From positions 1,632,001-1,696,000 of the forward strand of contig CAWDVE010000010.1 of the NCBI GenBank assembly GCA_963805625.1: a DNA stretch of 64,000 bases. The letters run 5' to 3'. Positions 21,841-35,074 of this stretch are shown one piece after another; position 1 is the stretch's first letter, and each line of letters opens with the position of its first letter. A model generated the notes under the pieces. It had not been told where the DNA came from. It searched no databases and saw only the letters and a list, made by a program, of their open reading frames with translations. A program made the translations under genes and the position numbers. Origin of the DNA: an uncultured Candidatus Rokubacteria bacterium (GTDB taxonomy: Bacteria > Methylomirabilota > Methylomirabilia > Rokubacteriales > DASRDR01).

Positions 21841-22171
21841 ATGACCGACCCACGTCTTGATCGACGGCGCCACGCGCTTCGGGGCGTTCCGGCGCGTGGT
21901 GCTCCCGCTGGCGGCCCCGGGCCTCCTGGCGGCAGCCCTCTACGCCTTCACCCAGGCCTGGAACGAGTTCCTCTACGCGCTGGTCTTCATCACCAACGTC
22001 AAGCTCCGGACGCTGCCGGTCGGCCTCTCGACGTTCATCACCGGCGACGTGTACGGATGGGGCTACCTCATGGCGGGCGCCGTCCTCACGACGCTGCCCG
22101 TGATCGCCGCCTACGTCTACCTCCAGCGCTACATGGTCGAGGGGCTCACCGCCGGCAGCGTGAAGGGGTAG
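21841..22171 (+). pseudogene. Deletion chimera: start of a Tat-like secreted gene fused out of frame to the C-terminus of a MalG-type sugar ABC permease
   Basis: MTDPRLDRRR from ATG 21841; second frame LIDGATRFGAF..AWNEFL..QRYMVEGLTAGSVKG lacks the N-terminal permease half. Confidence 0.75.
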
Positions 22172-22232
22172 CGGGATCCTGGTGGACCGGAGGGCGAGGT
22201 CGTGGCGTTTCGAGCCGCTCCCGGAGGCCTCC

Positions 22233-22298
22233 GTTTATGCCGGCTTGACGACGCGCCCATCGGTCTTTGCGGTTTCTTGATGAGCCCTCCCCTATGCT
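22233..22298 (+). promoter_or_regulatory. Putative KdpE operator/promoter 1 (four phased heptamers plus -10)
   Basis: GTTTATG-4-CTTGACG-14-CTTTGCG-4-CTTGATG-10-TATGCT. Confidence 0.65.
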
Positions 22299-22344: not shown

Positions 22345-23106
22345 ATGAGCCAGGATGACCGAGGGGCGGTGTGGTTCGTCATCGGCGTGGGAGGGGCCGT
22401 CGCGATCGGCGCGGCCCTGACGCCATTGCGGACGCTCGTGCCGGCGTCGACCCTCGCCTTCGTGTTCATCGCCCTGACCCTCGTGGTCGCCGAGATGGGC
22501 GGCCGGGGACCGGGGCTGGCCACGGCTGTCGTGTCCGCCATCAGCCTCAACTTCTTCCTGACCGAGCCGTATCTCTCGCTCGAGATCCACAAGCCCGGTG
22601 ATATCGCCGCGTTCGTCGCGCTCGCAGTGTGCGGCCTCATCGCGGCGGCTTTCGGGAAGCGGCGCGTGCGCACGGCGGAGCAGGTCAGCCGGACGCGGGG
22701 CGATCTGGAGGTGCTCGGACGGACCGCGGCCAGCCTCGCGGCGCGAGCGCCGATCGAGGACGTGCTGGAGGACCTTCGGCGCTTCTTCGGTCTCGGCGGC
22801 CTGGTGCTCCGGCGGGCTGACGAGCGCCTAATCGCGGCCGCGCCGCCGAGCCAGGCCGCGCTGCCGCCCCCCTCGACCCAGCTTGAAGCGTCGACGCTGG
22901 TCGCCAGCAACACGCGGGTGCACACGCTGGGCCGCACCGGGTTCCGCTTCCCTCAGGGAGGCGGGCGGCTCCCGCTCCAGGCCCGCGAGCCCCTGGTCCT
23001 CGATATCTGGGAAGGGAACACCGAGGGGCTCACCCTGGACGAGCGCCGGGCACTGGCCGTCGCGGCCCTCATGATCGCGCTCGCCGAGCCAGCCTCCCGC
23101 GCGTAG
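22345..23106 (+). CDS. Stand-alone DUF4118 (KdpD transmembrane-like) protein with a GAF-like C-terminal region, copy 1
   Basis: Four TM helices with SLNFFLTEPYL, resembling KdpD FDFFFVTPYL; no kinase domain. Confidence 0.8.
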   Translation: MSQDDRGAVWFVIGVGGAVAIGAALTPLRTLVPASTLAFVFIALTLVVAEMGGRGPGLATAVVSAISLNFFLTEPYLSLEIHKPGDIAAFVALAVCGLIAAAFGKRRVRTAEQVSRTRGDLEVLGRTAASLAARAPIEDVLEDLRRFFGLGGLVLRRADERLIAAAPPSQAALPPPSTQLEASTLVASNTRVHTLGRTGFRFPQGGGRLPLQAREPLVLDIWEGNTEGLTLDERRALAVAALMIALAEPASRA

Positions 23107-23233
23107 CCGTCTCCTTCGCCCCCGGGGCGCGCCCCCAGACCGAGGCCACCCCCGGACCCACATCAACGCACGCTCTGCCTCCGGCTTCCGGCGACCCGCT
23201 CCCCTCCCCGTCCCCGCCCGATTCAACGCCCCT

Positions 23234-23300
23234 CTTTACGGATCCTTGATCCTTCCGGGGCCAGTCTCTAGCGCGCCTTGACGCCTTCCTCCGCTACGGT
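23234..23300 (+). promoter_or_regulatory. Putative KdpE operator/promoter 2 (kdp operon)
   Basis: CTTTACG-4-CTTGATC-14-CTCTAGC-4-CTTGACG-11-TACGGT; same spacing as operator 1. Confidence 0.7.
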
Positions 23301-23366
23301 TCTCGCCATGCAGCTCTCTCGCTGCGCGGCTTCGGTCTCACCTACGGAATCACCGGGAGGCTAGTC

Positions 23367-23450
23367 ATGCTGGACTTTCTCTACATCGGGCTCACCGTCG
23401 GGTTCCTGGCCCTGTCCTGGGGGCTGGTCGCGCTCTGCGACCGGCTGTAG
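23367..23450 (+). CDS. 27-aa single-TM peptide upstream of kdpF
   Basis: MLDFLYIGLTVGFLALSWGLVALCDRL with GGGAGG RBS; below the ORF-track cut-off. Confidence 0.75.
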   Translation: MLDFLYIGLTVGFLALSWGLVALCDRL

Positions 23451-23462
23451 CGGGAGGCTGAC

Positions 23463-23555
23463 ATGCCCATTCTCTACGTGATCGGCGGCCTGCTCTCGGT
23501 GGGGCTCCTCGTGTACCTCGTGGTGGCGCTCCTGAAGCCGGAGGTGTTCTCGTGA
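23463..23555 (+). CDS. kdpF: K+-transporting ATPase subunit F
   Basis: [30 protein letters not shown] (YL..ALL.PE.F motif); GGGAGG RBS; GTGA overlap with kdpA. Confidence 0.92.
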
Positions 23556-25360
23556 CCCCGAACGGGTACCTGCAGCTCGCGCTCTATCTGGTCGTCCTCA
23601 TCGGCCTGGCCAAGCCGCTCGGGCTCTACATGGCCCGCGTCTACGAGGGGCGCACGCCGGGGCTCGGACCCCTCCTGGGGTGGCTCGAGCGCCTCGTCTA
23701 CCGGCTATCGGGCGTCCGGCCCGACCGAGAGATGGGGTGGCAGACGTACGCCCTCGCGATGTTGCTCTTCAACTTCGCGGGCTTGCTGGTCGTGTACCTG
23801 CTCCAGCGCCTGCAGGGCGTCCTCCCGCTGAACCCGCAGGGCCTCGGCGCGGTGACGCCCGACTCGTCGTTCAACACCGCCGTCAGCTTCGCGACCAACA
23901 CGAACTGGCAGGGATACGGCGGCGAAACGACGATGAGCTACCTCACCCAGATGCTGGGGCTGACCGTGCAGAACTTCGTGTCGGCCGCGGCCGGCATGGC
24001 CACCCTGGCCGCGTTCCTCCGGGGCTTCTCCCGCCGCTCGGCCGAGACCATCGGCAACTTCTGGGTCGACCTGACGCGGTCGACGCTCTACATCCTGCTG
24101 CCCCTCTCGCTCGTGCTCGCGCTCATCCTGGTCTCCCAGGGCGTGGTCCAGACCTTCGGCGAGTCCGCGAAGGTCACGGTCGTCCAGCCCACCCGGTACG
24201 ACGTGCCGGAGACGGACAAAGACGGCAAGCCGGTCCTCGACGAGAAGGGTCAGCCCAAGATGACGAAGGCGACGCTGAAGGAGCAGATCCTGGCCGTGGG
24301 GCCCGCGGCGTCCCAGGTCGCCATCAAGCAGCTCGGGACGAACGGCGGCGGGTTCTTCAACGTGAACTCGGCGCACCCGTTCGAGAACGCGACGCCGCTC
24401 GCGAACTTCCTGGAGCTGCTCTCGATCCTCGTGATCTCTGCGGCCCTCTGTTACACGTTCGGCGCCATGGTCGGGGACACCCGACAGGGTTGGGCGATCC
24501 TGGCCGCGATGACGGTGCTCTTCGTGGTGCTGCTGGCCGTCTGCGTCGTGGCCGAGCAGCGTGGCTGGACGCTCGCGTCGCTCGGGGTCGACCACCAGGC
24601 CAGCGATCTCCAGGCGGGCGGGAACATGGAGGGCAAGGAGGTTCGGTTCGGGATCGCGAACTCCGCCCTCTGGGCGACCGCGACGACCGCCGCCTCCAAC
24701 GGCTCCGTGAACTCCATGCACGATTCCTACACGCCGATCGGCGGGCTCGTGCCGATGTGGCTCATCCAGCTCGGCGAGGTGATCTACGGCGGGGTGGGCT
24801 CCGGCCTGTACGGCATGCTCGTGTTCGCCATCATCGCCGTCTTCGTCGCCGGACTCATGGTCGGGCGGACTCCCGAGTACCTCGGCAAGAAGATCGAGGC
24901 CTACGAGATGAAGATGGCCTCGCTCGTGATCCTCATCCCGCCGGCGATCGTCACGATCGGGACCGCGATCGCCGTGGTGAGCCCCGGGGGCACCGCGACC
25001 ATCTTCAACCCGGGCCCCCACGGCTTCAGCGAGGTGCTCTACGCGTTCTCGTCCGCCGCCAACAACAACGGTAGCGCCTTCGCCGGGCTGGGCGCGAACA
25101 CGCCCTTCTACAACACGGCGCTCGGGTTCGCCATGCTGTTCGCCCGATACTGGCTGGCGATCCCGACCCTGGCGATCGCGGGGTCGCTCGCGCGCAAGAA
25201 GACGGTGCCGGTCGGGCCCGGCACCCTGCCCACGCACACCCCACTCTTCGTTGCGCTCCTGATCGGGGTGGTCGTCCTCGTGGGGGCGCTCACGTTCATC
25301 CCCGCGCTCGCGCTGGGACCGATCGTCGAGCACCTCATGATCACGGCCGTGAAACCGTAG
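23552..25360 (+). CDS. kdpA: K+-transporting ATPase subunit A
   Basis: [28 protein letters not shown] selectivity-filter motifs. Confidence 0.97.
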
Positions 25361-25378
25361 CGGCGGAGGTCGACTGTC

Positions 25379-27446
<2,068 letters not shown>

Positions 27447-27467
27447 CGAGAAGGAGATTCCCAAACC

Positions 27468-28043
27468 ATGGACCAGCTCAGACCGGCGGTCGTGATCCTG
27501 GTGCTGCTGACGCTCGTCACCGGCGTGGCCTACCCGCTCCTGGTGACGGGCATCGCCCAGGCCGTCTTCCCGAGTCAGGCGAACGGGAGCCTGGTCGTCC
27601 GGAACGGCAAGGTGGTGGGATCGAGCCTGATCGGGCAGCCATTCGACGATCCCAAGTACTTCTGGGGGCGCCTCTCGGCGACGGCGCCGTTCCCCTACAA
27701 CGCCGGTGCGTCCAGCGGGTCCAACTACGGCCCGCTCAACCCGGCGTTGTCGGCGGCGGCCAAGGGGCGGATCGACACGCTGCGCGAGGCCGATCCCAGC
27801 AACACGACGCCGATCCCCGTCGACCTGGTGACCGCCTCGGGGAGCGGGCTGGATCCGCACATCAGTCCGGCGGCCGCTTTCCATCAGGTCCCGCGGGTGG
27901 CCAAGGCGCGGGGGGTGGGTCCGGCGCAGGTGCGCCGCCTGGTCGAGCAGCACATCGAGGGCCGGCAGCTAGGCGTCCTCGGGGAACCTCGGGTCAACGT
28001 GCTGCAGCTGAATCTCGCGCTCGATGGCGCCCTTCAGGGATGA
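27468..28043 (+). CDS. kdpC: K+-transporting ATPase subunit C
   Basis: [28 protein letters not shown]. Confidence 0.97.
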
Positions 28044-28879
28044 CGATGATCCGCCGGGTTCTCGTCGCCATGGACGGCTCCGCTCACGGCGCGGCCGCGA
28101 CCGCACTCGCCATCGAGTGGGCGCGCCGCTTTGACGCCGAACTGATTGGGCTCGGCATCCTCGACAAGCCCTCCATCACGAGTCCCGAGCCTGTATCGTT
28201 CGGGGGCATGGCCTTCAAGCGCCAGCGCGACGAGGCCCGACTGGCGGACGCGCACCGGCAGGTCGTCCACCTCCTCGCGGACTTCCGCCAGCGCTGCGAC
28301 ACGGCGCAGGTGCGGTGCTCCGTGGTGGAAGACATCGGCGCGCCGCACGAACAGATCGTCGCGGAGGCGTACGCGTGCGACCTGGTCCTGCTCGGCCGGG
28401 AAACCCACTTCCAGTTCGAAACGCAGGATCACCCCGATTCAACGCTCGGCAAGGTGTTCCGCGAGAGCCCCCGCCCTGTCGTCGTCGTCCCCCGTGACCC
28501 CGCGCCGGGGGAGGGCGTCCTCGTGGCGTACGGGAGTGGCCGAGAGGTTGCCCGGACACTCCAGACGTTCACACTCCTCGGCCTAGCCGACGACGAGCCC
28601 GTCTGTCTCCTCGCCGTCGACCATGACCTGGCTCGGGCCGAGGCGCGGCTGCACCCGGCGGGCCAGTTCCTCACCGCTCACGGCCTGCGGGTCGCTCTCC
28701 AGCCGGTGGCGTCCAAGGCCCCGCGGGCAGCACTCATCCTTGACGAGGTCCGCCGTCAGCGACCGCGCATGGTGGTGATGGGCGCGCACGGACACCACGC
28801 CGTCCGCGACCTCTTCTTCACGTCGGTCACCCGCGCCGTGCTCAAGGAAGCACCTGTCCCGGTGTTGGTAGGCGCGTGA
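28040..28879 (+). CDS. Tandem universal stress protein
   Basis: [16 protein letters not shown] and [33 protein letters not shown]; ATGA overlap with kdpC. Confidence 0.88.
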
Positions 28880-28944
28880 AACGCGAAGGGTATGCCGTGA
28901 AAGTGACGGGCCCCGGTAGCCCGAGCAACGTGGAGTCGTTCAGC

Positions 28945-29730
28945 ATGGCTCGTCAAGATTCGGAGTCCGTGTGGATTGCCATCGGCGCGCTCGGCGCAAT
29001 GGCGCTCGGGGTGGCCCTGATTCCCTTCCGGACACTCACGTCCGCGTCGAATCTCGCCTTCGCCTTCCTGGCGCTGACGATTGTCGTGGCCGAGGTCGGC
29101 GGGCGCGCCGCCGGGCTCGCAACGGCCATCACCTCAGCGCTCAGCCTCAACTTCTTCCTGACCGAGCCCTACTTGACGCTGACCATCAACCGACCCGACG
29201 ACATCGTCGCCTTCCTCGCTCTGGCCGCTTCCGGACTGATCGCCGCTGCGTTCGGGCGGCGACGGGCGCGTTCGTCCGAAATGCTGGGGCGGGCGCGTGA
29301 CGACATCGGGGCACTCGAGCGACTCGCCGGGAGCTTGACCCCGAACGCGTCGCTGGAGGCGGTGCTCGAGGATCTCCGGCGCGCGTTTCGTCTCGCGGCC
29401 ATCGTCCTCCGGCGCGCCGAGGATCGCGTGGTCGCTGCGACTCCCGCGGACTCTGCGGCCCGGCCAACGCCGGCCGCCCCGTTGAATCCGCGTACCTTCC
29501 TTAGCGACGAACGTCGCCATCGGCTCGGCCGACGGGGCTTTCGGCTACCAGAAGGCGGCGGGCGGCTCCGCCTCGCGGGAGAGCCGGAGCCGCTCTGGCT
29601 CGATCTCTGGGAAGGCGACGAGGAAGGGCTCAGCGGAGACGAACAGCGTGCGCTGGTCGTGGCGGCAGCGATACTCAGACTGGCCCTTCGGCCAGACCCG
29701 ACGCTCAGCGCGCGGGCCTCGGTGAGGTAG
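28945..29730 (+). CDS. Stand-alone DUF4118 protein with a GAF-like region, copy 2
   Basis: Paralog of 22345..23106 (SLNFFLTEPYL, LEDLRR, GFRLPEGGGRL, LDLWEG); ORF opens at 28876. Confidence 0.8.
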   Translation: MARQDSESVWIAIGALGAMALGVALIPFRTLTSASNLAFAFLALTIVVAEVGGRAAGLATAITSALSLNFFLTEPYLTLTINRPDDIVAFLALAASGLIAAAFGRRRARSSEMLGRARDDIGALERLAGSLTPNASLEAVLEDLRRAFRLAAIVLRRAEDRVVAATPADSAARPTPAAPLNPRTFLSDERRHRLGRRGFRLPEGGGRLRLAGEPEPLWLDLWEGDEEGLSGDEQRALVVAAAILRLALRPDPTLSARASVR

Positions 29731-29738
29731 CGTCGCCC

Positions 29739-31629
29739 GTGTCGATGCACGCCGTCAAACGCGCCCTTCTGGGCCGACCCATCCCCACATCGCACGAGAT
29801 GCACGAGCGCCTTGGGCGAGCGACCGGCCTGGCCGTGTTCGCCTCGGACGCGCTCTCGTCCAGCGCATACGCCACGGAGGAGATCCTCCTGATCCTCGCG
29901 CTGGCCGGCGCCGGGGCGCTCCACGTCGGAGTACCGATCTCGCTGGGGATTGCGATGCTAATCGCCATCGTGGTGAGCTCCTACCGACAGACGATTCTCG
30001 CCTATCCGAGCGCTGGCGGCGCTTACATCGTCAGTCGGGAGAACCTCGGCACGTATCCCAGTCTCGTCGCGGGTGCCGCGTTGCTGACGGACTACGTGCT
30101 CACCGTCTCGGTGAGCGTCGCCGCGGGCATCGCCGCCGTCACGTCTGCCATACCGACCCTCTATCCGTATCGGGTCGAGCTCTGCCTCCTCGGGGTTTTC
30201 TTGATCACGGTCGCGAACCTGCGCGGCGTCCGCGAATCGGGGCGGTTGTTCGCAGTCCCGACATACGCCTTCATCGCGTCCTACGTTCTCATGATCGGCT
30301 GGGGTGCCATCGTCTGGGCGCGAGCGGGCGCGGGGGGTGAACTTGCCGCGTCAGCGATGCTCCCGCGAGACCGGTGCCCAGGAGCTGACGCTGTTCCTGA
30401 TCCTCCGTGCGTTCGCATCCGGTTGCGTCGCTCTCACGGGGATCGAGGCCGTTTCGAATGGGGTACCAGCCTTCCGACCGCCGGAGGCCCAGAATGCTCG
30501 GCAGGTGCTCGTGCTACTCGGAGCCGTGCTCATCGGCCTCTTCGTCGGGATCACGTTTCTCGCGAACGGCTTCGGACTGACACCGACCGCCCAGGAGACC
30601 ATCAACTCTCAGCTGGCTCGCCGCGTCTTCGGCGAAGGCAGCGTCCTCTACTACCTCGTACAGGCCCTGACTACGCTGATCCTGGTCATCGCCGCGAACA
30701 CGAGCTTCGCGGACTTTCCCAGGCTCTCGTCATTCATGGCGCGCGACCGGTTCATGCCGCGCCAGCTGGCCAGTCGAGGGGATCGATTGGCCTTCTCGAA
30801 CGGCATCATCATCCTGGCGGCGCTGAGCGCCCTCCTGCTCGTCGTCTTCCACGCGGAAACGCATGCGCTGATCCCCCTCTATGCCATCGGTGTCTTCGTG
30901 TCGTTCACGCTTTCCCAGGTCGGCATGGTGCGCTTCTGGTTCCGCGAGCGAGGGCCTCGCTGGCCGAGGCGGGCCGTGCTGAACGCGATGGGCGCGGCGG
31001 CGACCGGCGTCGTGACGCTGATCATCGCCACCACCAAGTTCACGCATGGTGCCTGGCTCGTGATCCTGCTGATCCCGCTGCTAGTGCTCCTCCTCGTGAC
31101 TATCCGGCGACACTACGACGACGTCGCGGACCAGCTCTCCCTCGAGGGGCTGGAGCCACAAGAGCTGCCTCCTGGACGCCATAACGTCCTCGTCCTGGTG
31201 GGTGACGTCCACCGTGGCGTGCTGGGGGCCATCCGCTACGCCCGGGCCATCTCACCGAATGCGCGCGCCATGTACGTCGAGATCGATGCCGAGAGCCGGC
31301 GAAGGCTCGAGCAACGCTGGACCAAGTGGGCGAACGGAATGCCTTTGGTGGTGTTGCGATCGCCGTATCGTTCCGTGGTCGGCCCACTCCTCGAGTACGT
31401 GGATCGCCTCCAGCGGGAGGCCCCGGACGCGCTGATCACCATCATCCTGCCCGAGTTCCTGCCGGTCCGTTGGTGGCAACAGCTGCTCCACAACCAGACG
31501 GCGCTGCTGATCAAGGGCGCGCTGCTGTTCCGCCGGGGTATCATCGTGACCGACGTCCCCTATCACCTTGCGGCGAAGGCTCAAGAGGCCAACGGGAAGA
31601 CCCACGGGCCGCCCTCCGCAACACGGTGA
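29739..31629 (+). CDS. kimA: KimA/YdaO-like APC-superfamily potassium transporter, 1-nt frameshift near 30365
   Basis: SDALSSSAYATEEIL, GIEAVSNGVPAF, AANTSFADFPRL, PLYAIGVF, cytosolic tail SPYRS..LLHNQ; split across ORFs 29739 and 30304. Confidence 0.82.
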
Positions 31630-31662
31630 GCCTCACTGGGCCTCGTCGGCTAGACTGCAGGC

Positions 31663-34350
31663 GTGAACGACCACCGCCCGGATCCTGACGCGCTCCTGAC
31701 TCGAGTCCGGGAGGAGCAGGCTCGCCAGGGTCGCGGGAAGCTCAAGGTCTTCTTCGGGGCCGCCGCCGGTGTCGGGAAGACCTACGCGATGCTGGAGGCC
31801 GCGCGCGCCCAGCAGGCCGCGGGCGTCGACGTGGCTATCGGCTGGGTGGAGACGCACGGCCGGGCCGAGACGGAGGCACTCCTCCCCGGGCTAGAGCGGC
31901 TGCCGCCGCGCGCGGTCGAGTACCGCGGCACGACCCTGCGTGAGTTCGATCTCGACGCGGCCCTGGCCCGGCGCCCCGCCCTCATTCTCGTCGACGAGCT
32001 CGCCCACACGAACGCCCCGGGCTCCCGCCACGCGAAGCGCTGGCAGGACGTCACGGAGCTGCTGGCCGCCGGGATCGACGTCTACACGACCCTGAACGTC
32101 CAGCACCTCGAGAGCCTGAACGACGTCGTCGCGCGGGTGACGGAGGTGCCGACGCGGGAGACGGTCCCCGACTCGATCCTCGAAGAGGCGGCCGAGGTCG
32201 AGCTGGTCGATCTTCCCCCCGACGACCTGATCCAGCGCCTCAAGGAAGGGAAGGTCTACTTCCCCGAGCAAGCCGGTGAGGCCGTGCGCCGCTTCTTCCG
32301 AAAGGGCAACCTCATCGCCCTCCGGGAGCTGGCACTCCGGACCACCGCGGCACGAGTCGACGCCCAGATGGAGGTGTATCGGCGCGACCACGCCGTGCCG
32401 GGGACCTGGCCGGTGGCCGAGCGCATCCTGGTCTGCGTCAGCCCGAGCCCATTGGCCGCGCGCGTCGTCCGCGCGGCCCGGCGAATGGCGGCCGGGATGC
32501 ACGCCGAGTGGGTGGTCGTCAACGTGGAGACGCCGGCCACCGCCCACCCCGCGAACGCGGACCACGACCGCGTCGTCCAGACTCTCCGCCTCGCCGAGCA
32601 GCTCGGCGCCGAGACCGCCACTCTGTCGGGGCATGACGTCGCCGCGGAGGTGCTGGCCTACGCGCGCCGCCGCAACGTGACGCGCATCGTTCTCGGCAAG
32701 CCGGCGCGACCGCGCTGGCGGGAAATTCTGTTCGGCTCGGTGGTCAACGAGCTGGTCCGGCGGAGCGGCGACATCGACGTCTACGTCATCACCGGAGAGC
32801 GCGAGGGGCCGCAGCCGCCCGCAGCGGAGCGGCCGGCGCCGCCCATCGACTGGGCCGGTCACGCCAAGGCCGTGGGAATCGTGGCGGCCTGCACCGGACT
32901 GGCCGCGCTCATGTTCCCCCGATTCGCCCCCGCCAATCTCATCATGGTGTACCTCCTCGGCACCGTGCTGGCTGCCTGGCGTCTCGGCCGAGCACCTTCG
33001 ATCCTCGTGTCCGTCCTCAGCGTGGCGGCCTTCGACTTCTTCTTCGTCACTCCCTACTTGACCTTCGCGGTGTCCGACACGCAGTACCTCGTCACGTTCG
33101 CCGTCATGCTGGCCGTGGCGGTCGTGATCAGCACGCTCACCACACGCGTCCGGGCGCAGGCGGAGGCCTCGCGCCAGCGCGAGCGCCGGACCGCCGCCCT
33201 CTACTCGATGACCCGCGATCTGGTCAGTCAGCAGGGTCTGGACGAGCTACTGCGGGCGGCGACGCGCCACATCGCCGAAGTGTTCGGAAGCCGGGTGGCA
33301 GTATACCTCCCCGGCCCCGACGGCCAGCTCGTCCGGCGGGCGGGCGAGCTCGCCGCCGGGTCTGGAGACGCCAACGAACTCGGCGTCGCCCGGTGGGTGC
33401 AGGAGCATGGCCAGATGGCCGGCCGCGGGAGCGCGACCCTCCCCGGCGCGCGGGCACTCTATCTGCCCCTCCTTGCCGCACGCGGTACAGTCGGGGTCCT
33501 CGGAGTCGAGACCACGGCCGAGACCCTGGCGACGCCCGAGCAGCTCCATCTGCTCGAGACTATCGCTGCGCAGGCGGCCCTGGCCATCGAGCGCGTGGCG
33601 CTGGTAGACGAGGCCCAGCAGGCCAGCATCCGGTCCGAGACGGAACGGCTTCGGAACTCGCTGCTGAGCGCCGTGTCCCACGACCTCCGCACACCCCTCG
33701 CCACCATCACCGGATCGGCCAGCGCTCTCGTGGAGCAGGAGGCAGGACTGGACGCGGCAGCGCGGCGCGAGCTGGCCCAGGCGATCCAGGAGGAAGCCGA
33801 GCGCCTGAATCGCCTCGTGCACAACCTCCTCGAGATGACGCGTCTCGAGTCCGGCGGCATCCGCGTGCGCAAGGACTGGGAACCCCTGGAAGAGGTGGTC
33901 GGGAGCGCCCTGGCGCGCGTGGAGAAGCGCCTCGGCGCGCGCCGCGTCGACATCCAGCTGGCTCCCGACTTGCCGCTGGTGCCGCTCGATCCCCTGCTCA
34001 TCGAGCAGGTGCTGATCAACCTGCTCGACAACGCCATCAAGTACGCGCCCGGCGACACGCCGATCGAGATCTCGGCCTCCGCCGACGAGCACGCCGTGCG
34101 CGTGACCGTCGCGGACCGGGGGCCGGGGTTCGCGCCGGGCGAGGAAACGCGCGTCTTCGACAAGTTCTACCGGGGGCAGGAGGCGGGAGCGCGCAGCGGG
34201 GCGGGTCTCGGTCTCGCCATCGCGCGGGGCATCGTCGAGGTCCACGGCGGCGAGATCACGGCGGAGCCGCGCCCGGGCGGCGGGGCCCTGTTCCGGTTCA
34301 CCCTGCCGCTGGCGGCGAAGCCCCCGGAGATCCGGTCGGACGATGGCTGA
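31663..34350 (+). CDS. kdpD: Sensor histidine kinase KdpD
   Basis: GAAAGVGKTYAML, DELAHTN, USP, four TM, GAF, SHDLRTPL, GAGLGLAI. Confidence 0.97.
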   Translation: MNDHRPDPDALLTRVREEQARQGRGKLKVFFGAAAGVGKTYAMLEAARAQQAAGVDVAIGWVETHGRAETEALLPGLERLPPRAVEYRGTTLREFDLDAALARRPALILVDELAHTNAPGSRHAKRWQDVTELLAAGIDVYTTLNVQHLESLNDVVARVTEVPTRETVPDSILEEAAEVELVDLPPDDLIQRLKEGKVYFPEQAGEAVRRFFRKGNLIALRELALRTTAARVDAQMEVYRRDHAVPGTWPVAERILVCVSPSPLAARVVRAARRMAAGMHAEWVVVNVETPATAHPANADHDRVVQTLRLAEQLGAETATLSGHDVAAEVLAYARRRNVTRIVLGKPARPRWREILFGSVVNELVRRSGDIDVYVITGEREGPQPPAAERPAPPIDWAGHAKAVGIVAACTGLAALMFPRFAPANLIMVYLLGTVLAAWRLGRAPSILVSVLSVAAFDFFFVTPYLTFAVSDTQYLVTFAVMLAVAVVISTLTTRVRAQAEASRQRERRTAALYSMTRDLVSQQGLDELLRAATRHIAEVFGSRVAVYLPGPDGQLVRRAGELAAGSGDANELGVARWVQEHGQMAGRGSATLPGARALYLPLLAARGTVGVLGVETTAETLATPEQLHLLETIAAQAALAIERVALVDEAQQASIRSETERLRNSLLSAVSHDLRTPLATITGSASALVEQEAGLDAAARRELAQAIQEEAERLNRLVHNLLEMTRLESGGIRVRKDWEPLEEVVGSALARVEKRLGARRVDIQLAPDLPLVPLDPLLIEQVLINLLDNAIKYAPGDTPIEISASADEHAVRVTVADRGPGFAPGEETRVFDKFYRGQEAGARSGAGLGLAIARGIVEVHGGEITAEPRPGGGALFRFTLPLAAKPPEIRSDDG

Positions 34351-35074
34351 GAACGAGAGCGGCCGCGAGCATCCGCGTTCGCCGACCGCCGGCCCGGTGG
34401 TGCTGGTCATCGAGGACGAGCCGCCGATCCGACGCTTCCTCCGTCCCACGCTCACGAGCCAGGGCTATCGCATCGTCGAGGCCGAGACCGGGGAGGACGG
34501 CCTGCTGCAGGCAGCGACCCGGCAGCCCGACCTCGTGATCCTCGACCTCGGGCTTCCCGACCTGGATGGTCTCCAGGTCATCCGCCGGCTGCGCGAGTGG
34601 ACCACGGTGCCGATCATCGTCCTCTCCGCCCGCGGGGCGGAGGCGGACAAGGTTGCCGCCCTGGACGCCGGTGCGGACGACTACGTGGCCAAGCCCTTCG
34701 CCGTGGGCGAGCTTCTCGCGCGCGCACGCGTCGCCCTGCGGCACGCCACGCTCGGGCGCGAGCCCGGCGAGTCCACGTTCGAGGCCGGGGGCCTCCGCGT
34801 GGACCTCGCGCGGCGAAGGGTCTGGCTCGGCGAGGCCGAGGTGCGTCTCACGCCCATCGAGTACCGCCTCCTCGCCGTCCTCGTCCGCCACGCCGGGAAG
34901 GTGCTCACGCACCGGCAGCTATTGCAGGAGGTCTGGGGCCCCGGGCAGGTCGAGCAGACGCACTACCTGCGCGTGTACATGGCGAACCTCCGCCGGAAGC
35001 TCGAGGCGGATCCGGCGCGCCCGCGCCTGCTGCGGACGGAGCCGGGAGTGGGCTACCGCCTACTCACCGAGTGA
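34343..35074 (+). CDS. kdpE: OmpR-family response regulator KdpE
   Basis: IEDE, LDLGLPD, YLRVYMANLRRKLE..TEPGVGYR. Confidence 0.95.
   Translation: MAENESGREHPRSPTAGPVVLVIEDEPPIRRFLRPTLTSQGYRIVEAETGEDGLLQAATRQPDLVILDLGLPDLDGLQVIRRLREWTTVPIIVLSARGAEADKVAALDAGADDYVAKPFAVGELLARARVALRHATLGREPGESTFEAGGLRVDLARRRVWLGEAEVRLTPIEYRLLAVLVRHAGKVLTHRQLLQEVWGPGQVEQTHYLRVYMANLRRKLEADPARPRLLRTEPGVGYRLLTE

Follow-up and report, generated by a model that had tools for sequence, protein, structure and literature searches.

A 64,000-nucleotide stretch of contig C10 in genome G000, from an uncultured Candidatus Rokubacteria bacterium (hereafter the window), carries on each side of kdpFABC a gene for an accessory Kdp membrane protein that is real and conserved and that, from its upstream sequence, is probably controlled by KdpE. 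The two genes, copy 1 (P0001, 253 aa, 22345..23106) and copy 2 (P0002, 261 aa, 28945..29730), lie on the + strand, as do all the window features described below. Both encode the four-transmembrane (TM) DUF4118 domain, an Arg-rich linker helix and a GAF fold, in the order seen in the sensor kinase KdpD, without the kinase. The sequence comparisons support a genuine, kdp-linked family under purifying selection. As to function, a KdpE-induced, non-catalytic partner of KdpD that exerts negative feedback on the kdp regulon is proposed tentatively, at somewhat less than an even chance.

A sequence-only reading of the window had described two diverged paralogs flanking kdpFABC, each with a KdpD-like DUF4118 domain and a GAF-like region but without HisKA or HATPase domains, and the analysis bears this out. 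The copies are 58% identical over 248 aa and are the sole two members in their genome. DUF4118 is matched with 68.6 bits by copy 1 and 61 bits by copy 2 (cut-off 28.4), and the four-TM domain is present in all of the 83 full-length family members that were picked by hand for profile and model building. In the Pfam scan neither copy contains a HisKA, HATPase, KdpD (PF02702) or Usp family, and in the NCBIfam scan neither matches any model at E<=0.01, NF038185 (KdpD/Usp non-kinase sensor) included. None of the histidines present (H82 and H193 in copy 1, H192 in copy 2) stands in a DHp context. The best Protein Data Bank (PDB) sequence match is the TM domain of E. coli KdpD (2KSF, E 1e-7), and matches in the ESM Atlas are only unnamed or automatically named DUF4118 clusters.

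In neither copy does Pfam recognize a GAF domain in the C-terminal half, and just one of the 83 members matches GAF_2. The assignment of this half to the GAF fold is nevertheless supported by profile alignment and by modelling. A profile-profile alignment (HHalign) of the 83 members with 18 KdpD TM-GAF-DHp segments is co-linear over 221 columns (98.6%), the family profile stopping with the GAF C-terminal helix immediately ahead of the kinase, at the S-helix/DHp boundary; both copies are thereby co-linear with KdpD ~420-647 and end where the kinase starts. The AlphaFold2 model from 83 rows has a predicted local distance difference test score (pLDDT) of 86.1 and a predicted TM-score (pTM) of 0.70, an earlier 33-row model having reached a pLDDT of 73. 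This model shows four TM helices, with TM4 running on into the linker as one unbroken helix (84-132), then an alpha/beta domain resembling GAF and, at the end, a helix spanning 231-247. The top Foldseek rows are GAF-containing structures, the best being 3cit at E 0.012, with no row at E<=0.001. Also, the motifs that had been noticed in this region are conserved, with G206 in 83, P203 and W222 in 80 each, R208 in 75 and D220 in 73 of the 83 members. Four further residues, R29, S67, T73 and D86, are invariant, and from the KdpD topology we infer that they lie on the outer face, in loops or at helix ends.

In a phmmer search of 1.84 billion representative sequences, 1825 matches were obtained at E<=0.001 and 36 at 1e-30, and among the matches listed most of those covering the whole query are 240-280 aa long. 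A longer, fused form was not found at E<=1e-20 among 7992 candidates, which is weak evidence. From GTDB, 48 loci were retrieved and one (L088) was left out as a canonical KdpD; the record titles of the remaining 47 include Rokubacteria, Methylomirabilota, Acidobacteriota, Krumholzibacteriia and Verrucomicrobiia, some of these bin labels being possibly wrong. The 44 full-length locus proteins, including the window's two and excluding five loci with frameshifts, span 245-272 aa. For all 14 pairs, chosen by hand, the ratio of nonsynonymous to synonymous substitution rates (dN/dS) falls within 0.13-0.30, and in neither the TM nor the GAF half by itself does it exceed 0.36. Moreover, a quick IQ-TREE tree of 71 rows splits 53 family sequences from 18 KdpD segments with a Shimodaira-Hasegawa-like approximate likelihood ratio test (SH-aLRT) value of 100, and places copy 1 and copy 2 in sister subclades. 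The identity with the neighbouring KdpD is only ~30% and is limited to the TM part. These results bear on whether both copies could be decaying fragments of a duplicated kdpD, a possibility that had been raised together with the dN/dS check. Homology to the middle of KdpD is what speaks for such an origin, but the low identity to the adjacent KdpD, a clade of their own across several phyla, dN/dS far below 1 in both halves, a constant length with clean ends and a conserved operator of their own make it hardly credible, and the homologs are not taken as fragments.

The association with kdp that was anticipated is found as well. A kdpA, kdpB, kdpC, kdpD or kdpE gene lies within 2.5 kb in 31 of the 47 loci (32 over all locus DNA examined), counts in which two locus pairs carry identical proteins. 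The position of the gene varies, being before kdpF, after kdpC, before kdpD or after kdpE, and this fits membership of a regulon better than a fixed subunit. When 61 genomes of the order were scored at E<=1e-55, 17 were carriers. KdpA is present in 11 of the 17 carriers versus 7 of the 44 non-carriers, and the KdpD N-domain in 13 versus 15, counts in which related genomes, many of them fragmented, are non-independent. Two other carriers, G030 and G036, have a KdpD with TM, GAF and kinase parts but no N-domain, plus KdpE, so that a KdpD TM-GAF-kinase chain occurs in 15 of 17. KdpD/KdpE is thus commoner among carriers than KdpA, and 4 of the 6 carriers without KdpA retain KdpD/KdpE. For example, in G036 (99% complete, 8 contigs) one operon consists of an operator, the family gene, a KdpD without N-terminal domains and kdpE; kdpA was not found in the genomes of G036 and G030. 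Also, the genomes of 10 of the 15 loci unlinked to kdp were searched, and KdpD was present in 8 and KdpA in 6.

Other elements of the window's arrangement do not generalize. Two copies occur in only two of the 17 carriers (G000 and G013), which argues against the pair as a design. The order usp-DUF4118-GAF had been proposed to mirror KdpD; an intact usp directly before the family gene is seen in the window and in none of the 47 related loci, a single one of which (L051) keeps ~40 nucleotides of a usp 3' end there, and the tandem universal stress protein (USP) matches the USP domain of KdpD only marginally. A coupling of the Kdp pump to KimA fares no better: of 47 loci, 3 have kimA directly beside the family gene, and the proteins of two of these are identical; in addition, KimA-like genes occur in 57 of 61 genomes, a near-universal presence that makes co-occurrence uninformative.

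Induction by KdpE, which had been suggested without a site, is now predicted from the promoter sequences. A de novo motif search upstream of the kdp operons of other genomes returned direct repeats with an 11-bp period. These share the spacing, and part of the sequence, of the site for KdpE in E. coli, TTTATA-N5-TTTACA, given in the available text of PMC3264566 as a pair of 6-bp direct repeats with 5 bp between them. The repeat would therefore be a KdpE binding site. The initial search had yielded the start of a 27-aa open reading frame (ORF) instead of the operator; of the 15 sites from the second, 4 fell within coding sequence, and the matrix was made again without them; as a held-out check, these four loci then scored 41-46 elsewhere, just after the gene. 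The 11 sites behind the final matrix include no G000 sequence and no region upstream of a family gene. Of 14.5 million positions scored with this matrix, the highest in the genome is the kdpF promoter, at 49.6 bits; the copy-1 promoter comes second with 22.0, ahead of a third position at 20.1. The first is the predicted operator of the kdp operon, TTTACG-N5-TTGATC ... TCTAGC-N5-TTGACG, at 23233..23300. The second (22232..22298, predicted -10 included) follows the KdpE-type pattern with TTTATG-N5-TTGACG, its half-sites being TTTATG at 22234, TTGACG at 22245, TTTGCG at 22266 and TTGATG at 22277, ahead of a predicted -10 TATGCT at 22293. Among copy-1 orthologues, 6 of 10 are preceded by an operator scoring 26-40, and operators also precede the family gene in G036 (25.0) and G007 (28.1). 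Copy 2 has no operator of its own (best score -11.7 in the 250 nucleotides upstream) and is likely read through from the kdpF promoter. As to expression, the single RNA run considered consists of soil-metagenome contigs and has a word share of 0.08.

Regarding K+ sensing, E. coli KdpD numbering follows from the 2KSF alignment when an offset of 395 is applied, a register that would be fixed by D460 and D474 both falling on Asp. Both positions are Asp in 18 of 18 KdpDs. In the copies they are N69 and K83 (copy 1) and N69 and R83 (copy 2), and among the 83 members the pair is Asn/Lys in 38, Asn/Arg in 5, Asp/Asp in 13 and other in 27. In E. coli KdpD, D474A makes the kinase blind to periplasmic K+ and constitutive, and D460V is constitutive, as given in the available text of PMC4759930, which cites earlier work for the former. 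Since both Asp positions are replaced, copies 1 and 2 probably do not share the way in which KdpD senses K+, and the role of K+ co-sensor suggested for them loses its footing; part of the family may sense it. The residues P466, T469, L470 and V472 of KdpD are those that we take to be the K+ site.

A complex prediction concerns the partner. With ESMFold2, copy 1 and KdpD 393-735 score 0.37, the best of three controls being 0.00; contact agreement between runs is at least 82%, with a partner pLDDT of at least 69. Of 157 solved pairs 116 attain the mark for a complex, as do 2 of 215 mismatched pairs; 18 of the 157 solved pairs and both mismatches do so with a score <=0.60. The prediction lends weak support to a copy 1-KdpD complex; no full-length KdpD structure was present among the PDB matches. 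As to the partnership with KdpD originally suggested, the carriers (KdpD/KdpE in 15 of 17, KdpA in 11 of 17) make KdpD the likelier partner, and the physical contact stays at this low predicted score.

In the feedback proposed here, KdpE would induce the copies together with the pump. If the repeat is taken as a KdpE site, they would accumulate only once KdpD has fired. Each copy would then be joined to a KdpD chain by its TM bundle, its linker and its GAF helices. Histidine kinases need a four-helix kinase core. A pair in which one chain brings no DHp helices could not form this core, so that active KdpD would be titrated. More speculatively, the Lys or Arg at the D474 position, together with the invariant Arg29 on the outer face, may act as a built-in cation that leaves the subunit K+-blind or locked in the K+-bound, off shape. 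The most extended version of the proposal, a widespread family of feedback inhibitors in which a KdpE-induced, kinase-dead and permanently K+-bound mimic of KdpD would set the ceiling and the shut-off of the Kdp response, is rather doubtful.

Several observations weigh against this feedback. The support from the complex prediction is weak, and close cousins of a true partner can reach the mark, which applies to the copies as paralogues of the KdpD protomer. Asp loss turns the E. coli kinase on, not off (PMC4759930, available text), so the sign of the partner could be positive, and the sign is the weakest step of the proposal. Because 13 of 83 members keep both Asp residues, K+-blindness is not family-wide. 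Before 4 of the 10 copy-1 orthologues the operator score is below 6, with no clear operator. Furthermore, 15 of the 47 loci have no kdp gene in the locus DNA examined, and the clade of L069, L072 and L078 sits among ABC-transporter genes. Two of the 10 searched genomes with unlinked copies show no KdpD, and in G015 (94% complete) and G017 (91%) the family gene is intact with no KdpD or KdpE found. Finally, the gene is absent from 15 of the 28 genomes with a KdpD N-domain, and it is therefore dispensable.

Other roles are considered as well. The copies could bind KdpD and act positively or as a co-sensor, favouring the kinase state, lowering the phosphatase or relaying a non-K+ signal through the outer face. 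The same linkage, operator and weak complex evidence would apply, the invariant polar R29, S67, T73 and D86 at outer loops and helix ends resemble a binding site, and both the constitutive activity of K+-blind KdpD mutants (PMC4759930, as above) and the members retaining both Asp point in this direction. However, an output domain is missing from the copies, and pairing with a chain that has no DHp would presumably lower kinase activity; a positive role is considered unlikely. By analogy with PelD, a DUF4118-GAF protein that serves a membrane synthase (PMC7890745, available text), the copies might instead serve as a scaffold or regulator without catalytic activity for a cation transporter, be it KdpFABC, KimA or a different one. 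The family gene follows kdpC within 231 nucleotides in 8 of 47 loci (nearest-gene distance), kimA is a neighbour in the window, L049/L050, L051 and G007, and L053, L063, L075 and L051 have genes for MgtE or a Na+/H+ exchanger in the neighbourhood. Against this, the six carriers without KdpA, four of them with KdpD/KdpE, the ubiquity of KimA-like genes and the variable gene position leave a transporter role with a low probability. An independent homodimeric membrane protein, merely co-regulated with kdp and having other partners such as tetratricopeptide repeat (TPR) proteins or a methyltransferase, is more improbable still. In its favour, the gene is intact in G015 and G017, and two TPR genes follow in at least 9 of the 21 loci whose neighbours were scanned, with an RlmA-like methyltransferase gene preceding in 5; against it, the window lacks this TPR and methyltransferase context, which only part of the tree shows.

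All the genes that had been recognized at the locus, kdpFABC, a tandem usp, a KimA relative and a full-length kdpD, are present, the order being copy 1, the 27-aa ORF, kdpF, kdpA, kdpB, kdpC, usp, copy 2, the KimA relative, kdpD and kdpE. The 27-aa hydrophobic ORF (23367..23450) has no Pfam family; the start of such an ORF with its ribosome site is the best common motif in 15 of 15 kdpA upstream regions, and it is possibly an additional small Kdp subunit, with clostridial KdpZ/KdpY as presumed parallels. It is followed by kdpF (23463..23555, PF09604, 34.6 bits), kdpA (23552..25360, PF03814), kdpB (25379..27446, TGES and DKTGT motifs) and kdpC (27468..28043, PF02669). The tandem USP gene (28040..28879, PF00582 in two stretches) overlaps the kdpC stop (gap -4); it recalls KdpQ, which we take to be an archaeal tandem USP and which the literature search did not find. 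Copy 2, of the same architecture as copy 1, has an alternative in-frame GTG start at 28876 that would give 284 aa. Downstream are the gene for the KimA-like K+ transporter (29739..31629; match to 6S3K, E 1.4e-103), kdpD (31663..34350, 895 aa, with KdpD, USP, DUF4118, GAF, HisKA with H673 and HATPase) and kdpE (34343..35074), whose best NCBIfam match is NF007820 with 305.6 bits, the cut-off being 325. Both kdpB and kimA carry a one-base frameshift in the window, on which the sequence-only reading was silent. At 25542/25544 and again at 30365 the contigs of run X1 are one base shorter, and the relatives are in frame, so the extra bases near 25542-25544 and near 30365 are likely assembly errors in an otherwise intact locus; pseudogenes were rejected on the same grounds. 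From the 27-aa ORF through kdpE the gaps between genes are -8 to 65 nucleotides, and a terminator scan of the locus gave two unconvincing candidates versus 3.1 expected by chance. Short gaps and the lack of a convincing terminator make a single operon likely. A sigma-70 scan of the locus found no promoter.

Upstream of copy 1 lies the 3' part of an ABC permease-like gene (21857-22171) and, farther upstream on the same strand, an aldehyde dehydrogenase-like gene, both named from their sequence, not from a family scan; this order is kept in most same-genus relatives. A second KimA-like locus of G000 is found on contig C24 (44-2319, ~70% identical). The kdpD chains that lack the KdpD and USP domains at the N-terminus are at 10170-11705 of L036 (G036) and 5101-7179 of L089 (G030); in L036, an assembly with frameshifts, a few N-terminal residues are joined directly to TM1. 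In L038, L098, L100 and others, kdpD/kdpE stand beside kimA with kdpA/kdpB lost or reduced to remnants, and the KdpD N-domain is found in 28 of the 61 genomes versus 18 for KdpA. In these bacteria, then, KimA may be under KdpDE control. Near kdp loci in L051 (4282-6087), L064, L081 and L095 there is a second kdpA, diverged (~52% to that of the window) and standing alone, which in L051 is placed between a SecF-like gene and a Na+/H+ exchanger gene with a cyclic nucleotide monophosphate (cNMP)-binding domain. A recurring cassette of an RlmA-like methyltransferase gene, the family gene, TPR genes and an AhpC/TSA gene, in some cases with MMPL or MgtE, is seen in L053, L054, L057, L060, L063, L064, L065, L066, L074 and L081, several of them led by the operator motif with weaker scores. 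Also, a BBP2 beta-barrel porin gene follows kdpC in L081 (6277-7542). In L041, L043, L046 and L058, a gap of 1.7-2.5 kb separates the family gene from kdpA, with an operator at the start of the gap, and these operons may be led by an additional gene.

KdpD/KdpE is a textbook case of a two-component system, and K+ sensing by the TM and GAF domains of KdpD was for a long time a matter of debate (PMC5936718, available text). With a TM-GAF core that has its own gene within the regulon and is under selection, the system would gain a further level of regulation in several phyla, and the K+-bound mimic, if true, would be a natural probe of K+ sensing by these parts of KdpD. The protein is accessory to a known system, its gene is dispensable in about half of the KdpD-bearing relatives and its function is a prediction.

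Compared with E. coli-type KdpD (NF007793; TM domain 2KSF), the copies keep the four-TM DUF4118 domain, the Arg-rich linker and the GAF domain in the same order, and the outer-loop pattern P-x-x-(T/S)-L-x-(I/V). In contrast, they have no KdpD (serine kinase), USP, DHp or CA domains, D460 and D474 are replaced, and the invariant R29 and D86 of the family are not found in KdpD. A stand-alone TM-GAF protein in kdp loci was not found described in the literature on DUF4118, KdpD, kdp accessory or truncated forms and Rokubacteria (titles and abstract starts, subscription papers being mostly outside). Natural KdpD chains short of some domains are known: Silberberg et al. 2024 distinguish split KdpD/Usp plus TM/GAF/DHpCA, KdpD/Usp only and DHpCA-truncated classes (PMC11018627). 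However, the classes named in its available text all retain a catalytic domain and TM plus GAF alone is not among them, and, unlike the TM/GAF/DHpCA chain of split or short KdpD, the copies have no DHpCA. A term search for such a form in the text supplements of that work gave no hit, rarer classes possibly being shown in figures such as Supplementary Fig. 7. Its survey of 5495 species counted only the full-length chain where extra variants adjoined, according to the same text, and would thus omit these genes. The copies are outside every KdpD class named in the portions of the literature examined.

PelD consists of DUF4118, GAF and a degenerate GGDEF, which is missing in streptococcal forms (PMC7890745, available text). 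The copies are likewise non-catalytic DUF4118-GAF membrane proteins; unlike PelD, they have no GGDEF or SDR domain, distant family members match the KdpD model, and no pel families occur in the 77 neighbours scanned. The accessory KdpD regulators UspC, PtsN and PhoU (PMC11018627, PMC8534201 and PMC5458449, available text) offer a functional parallel, being non-catalytic proteins that bind and tune KdpD, although for the copies such binding is a weak prediction from modelling. Unlike these regulators, to which they are unrelated in sequence, the copies are a membrane paralogue of the KdpD sensor core itself, encoded within the regulon.

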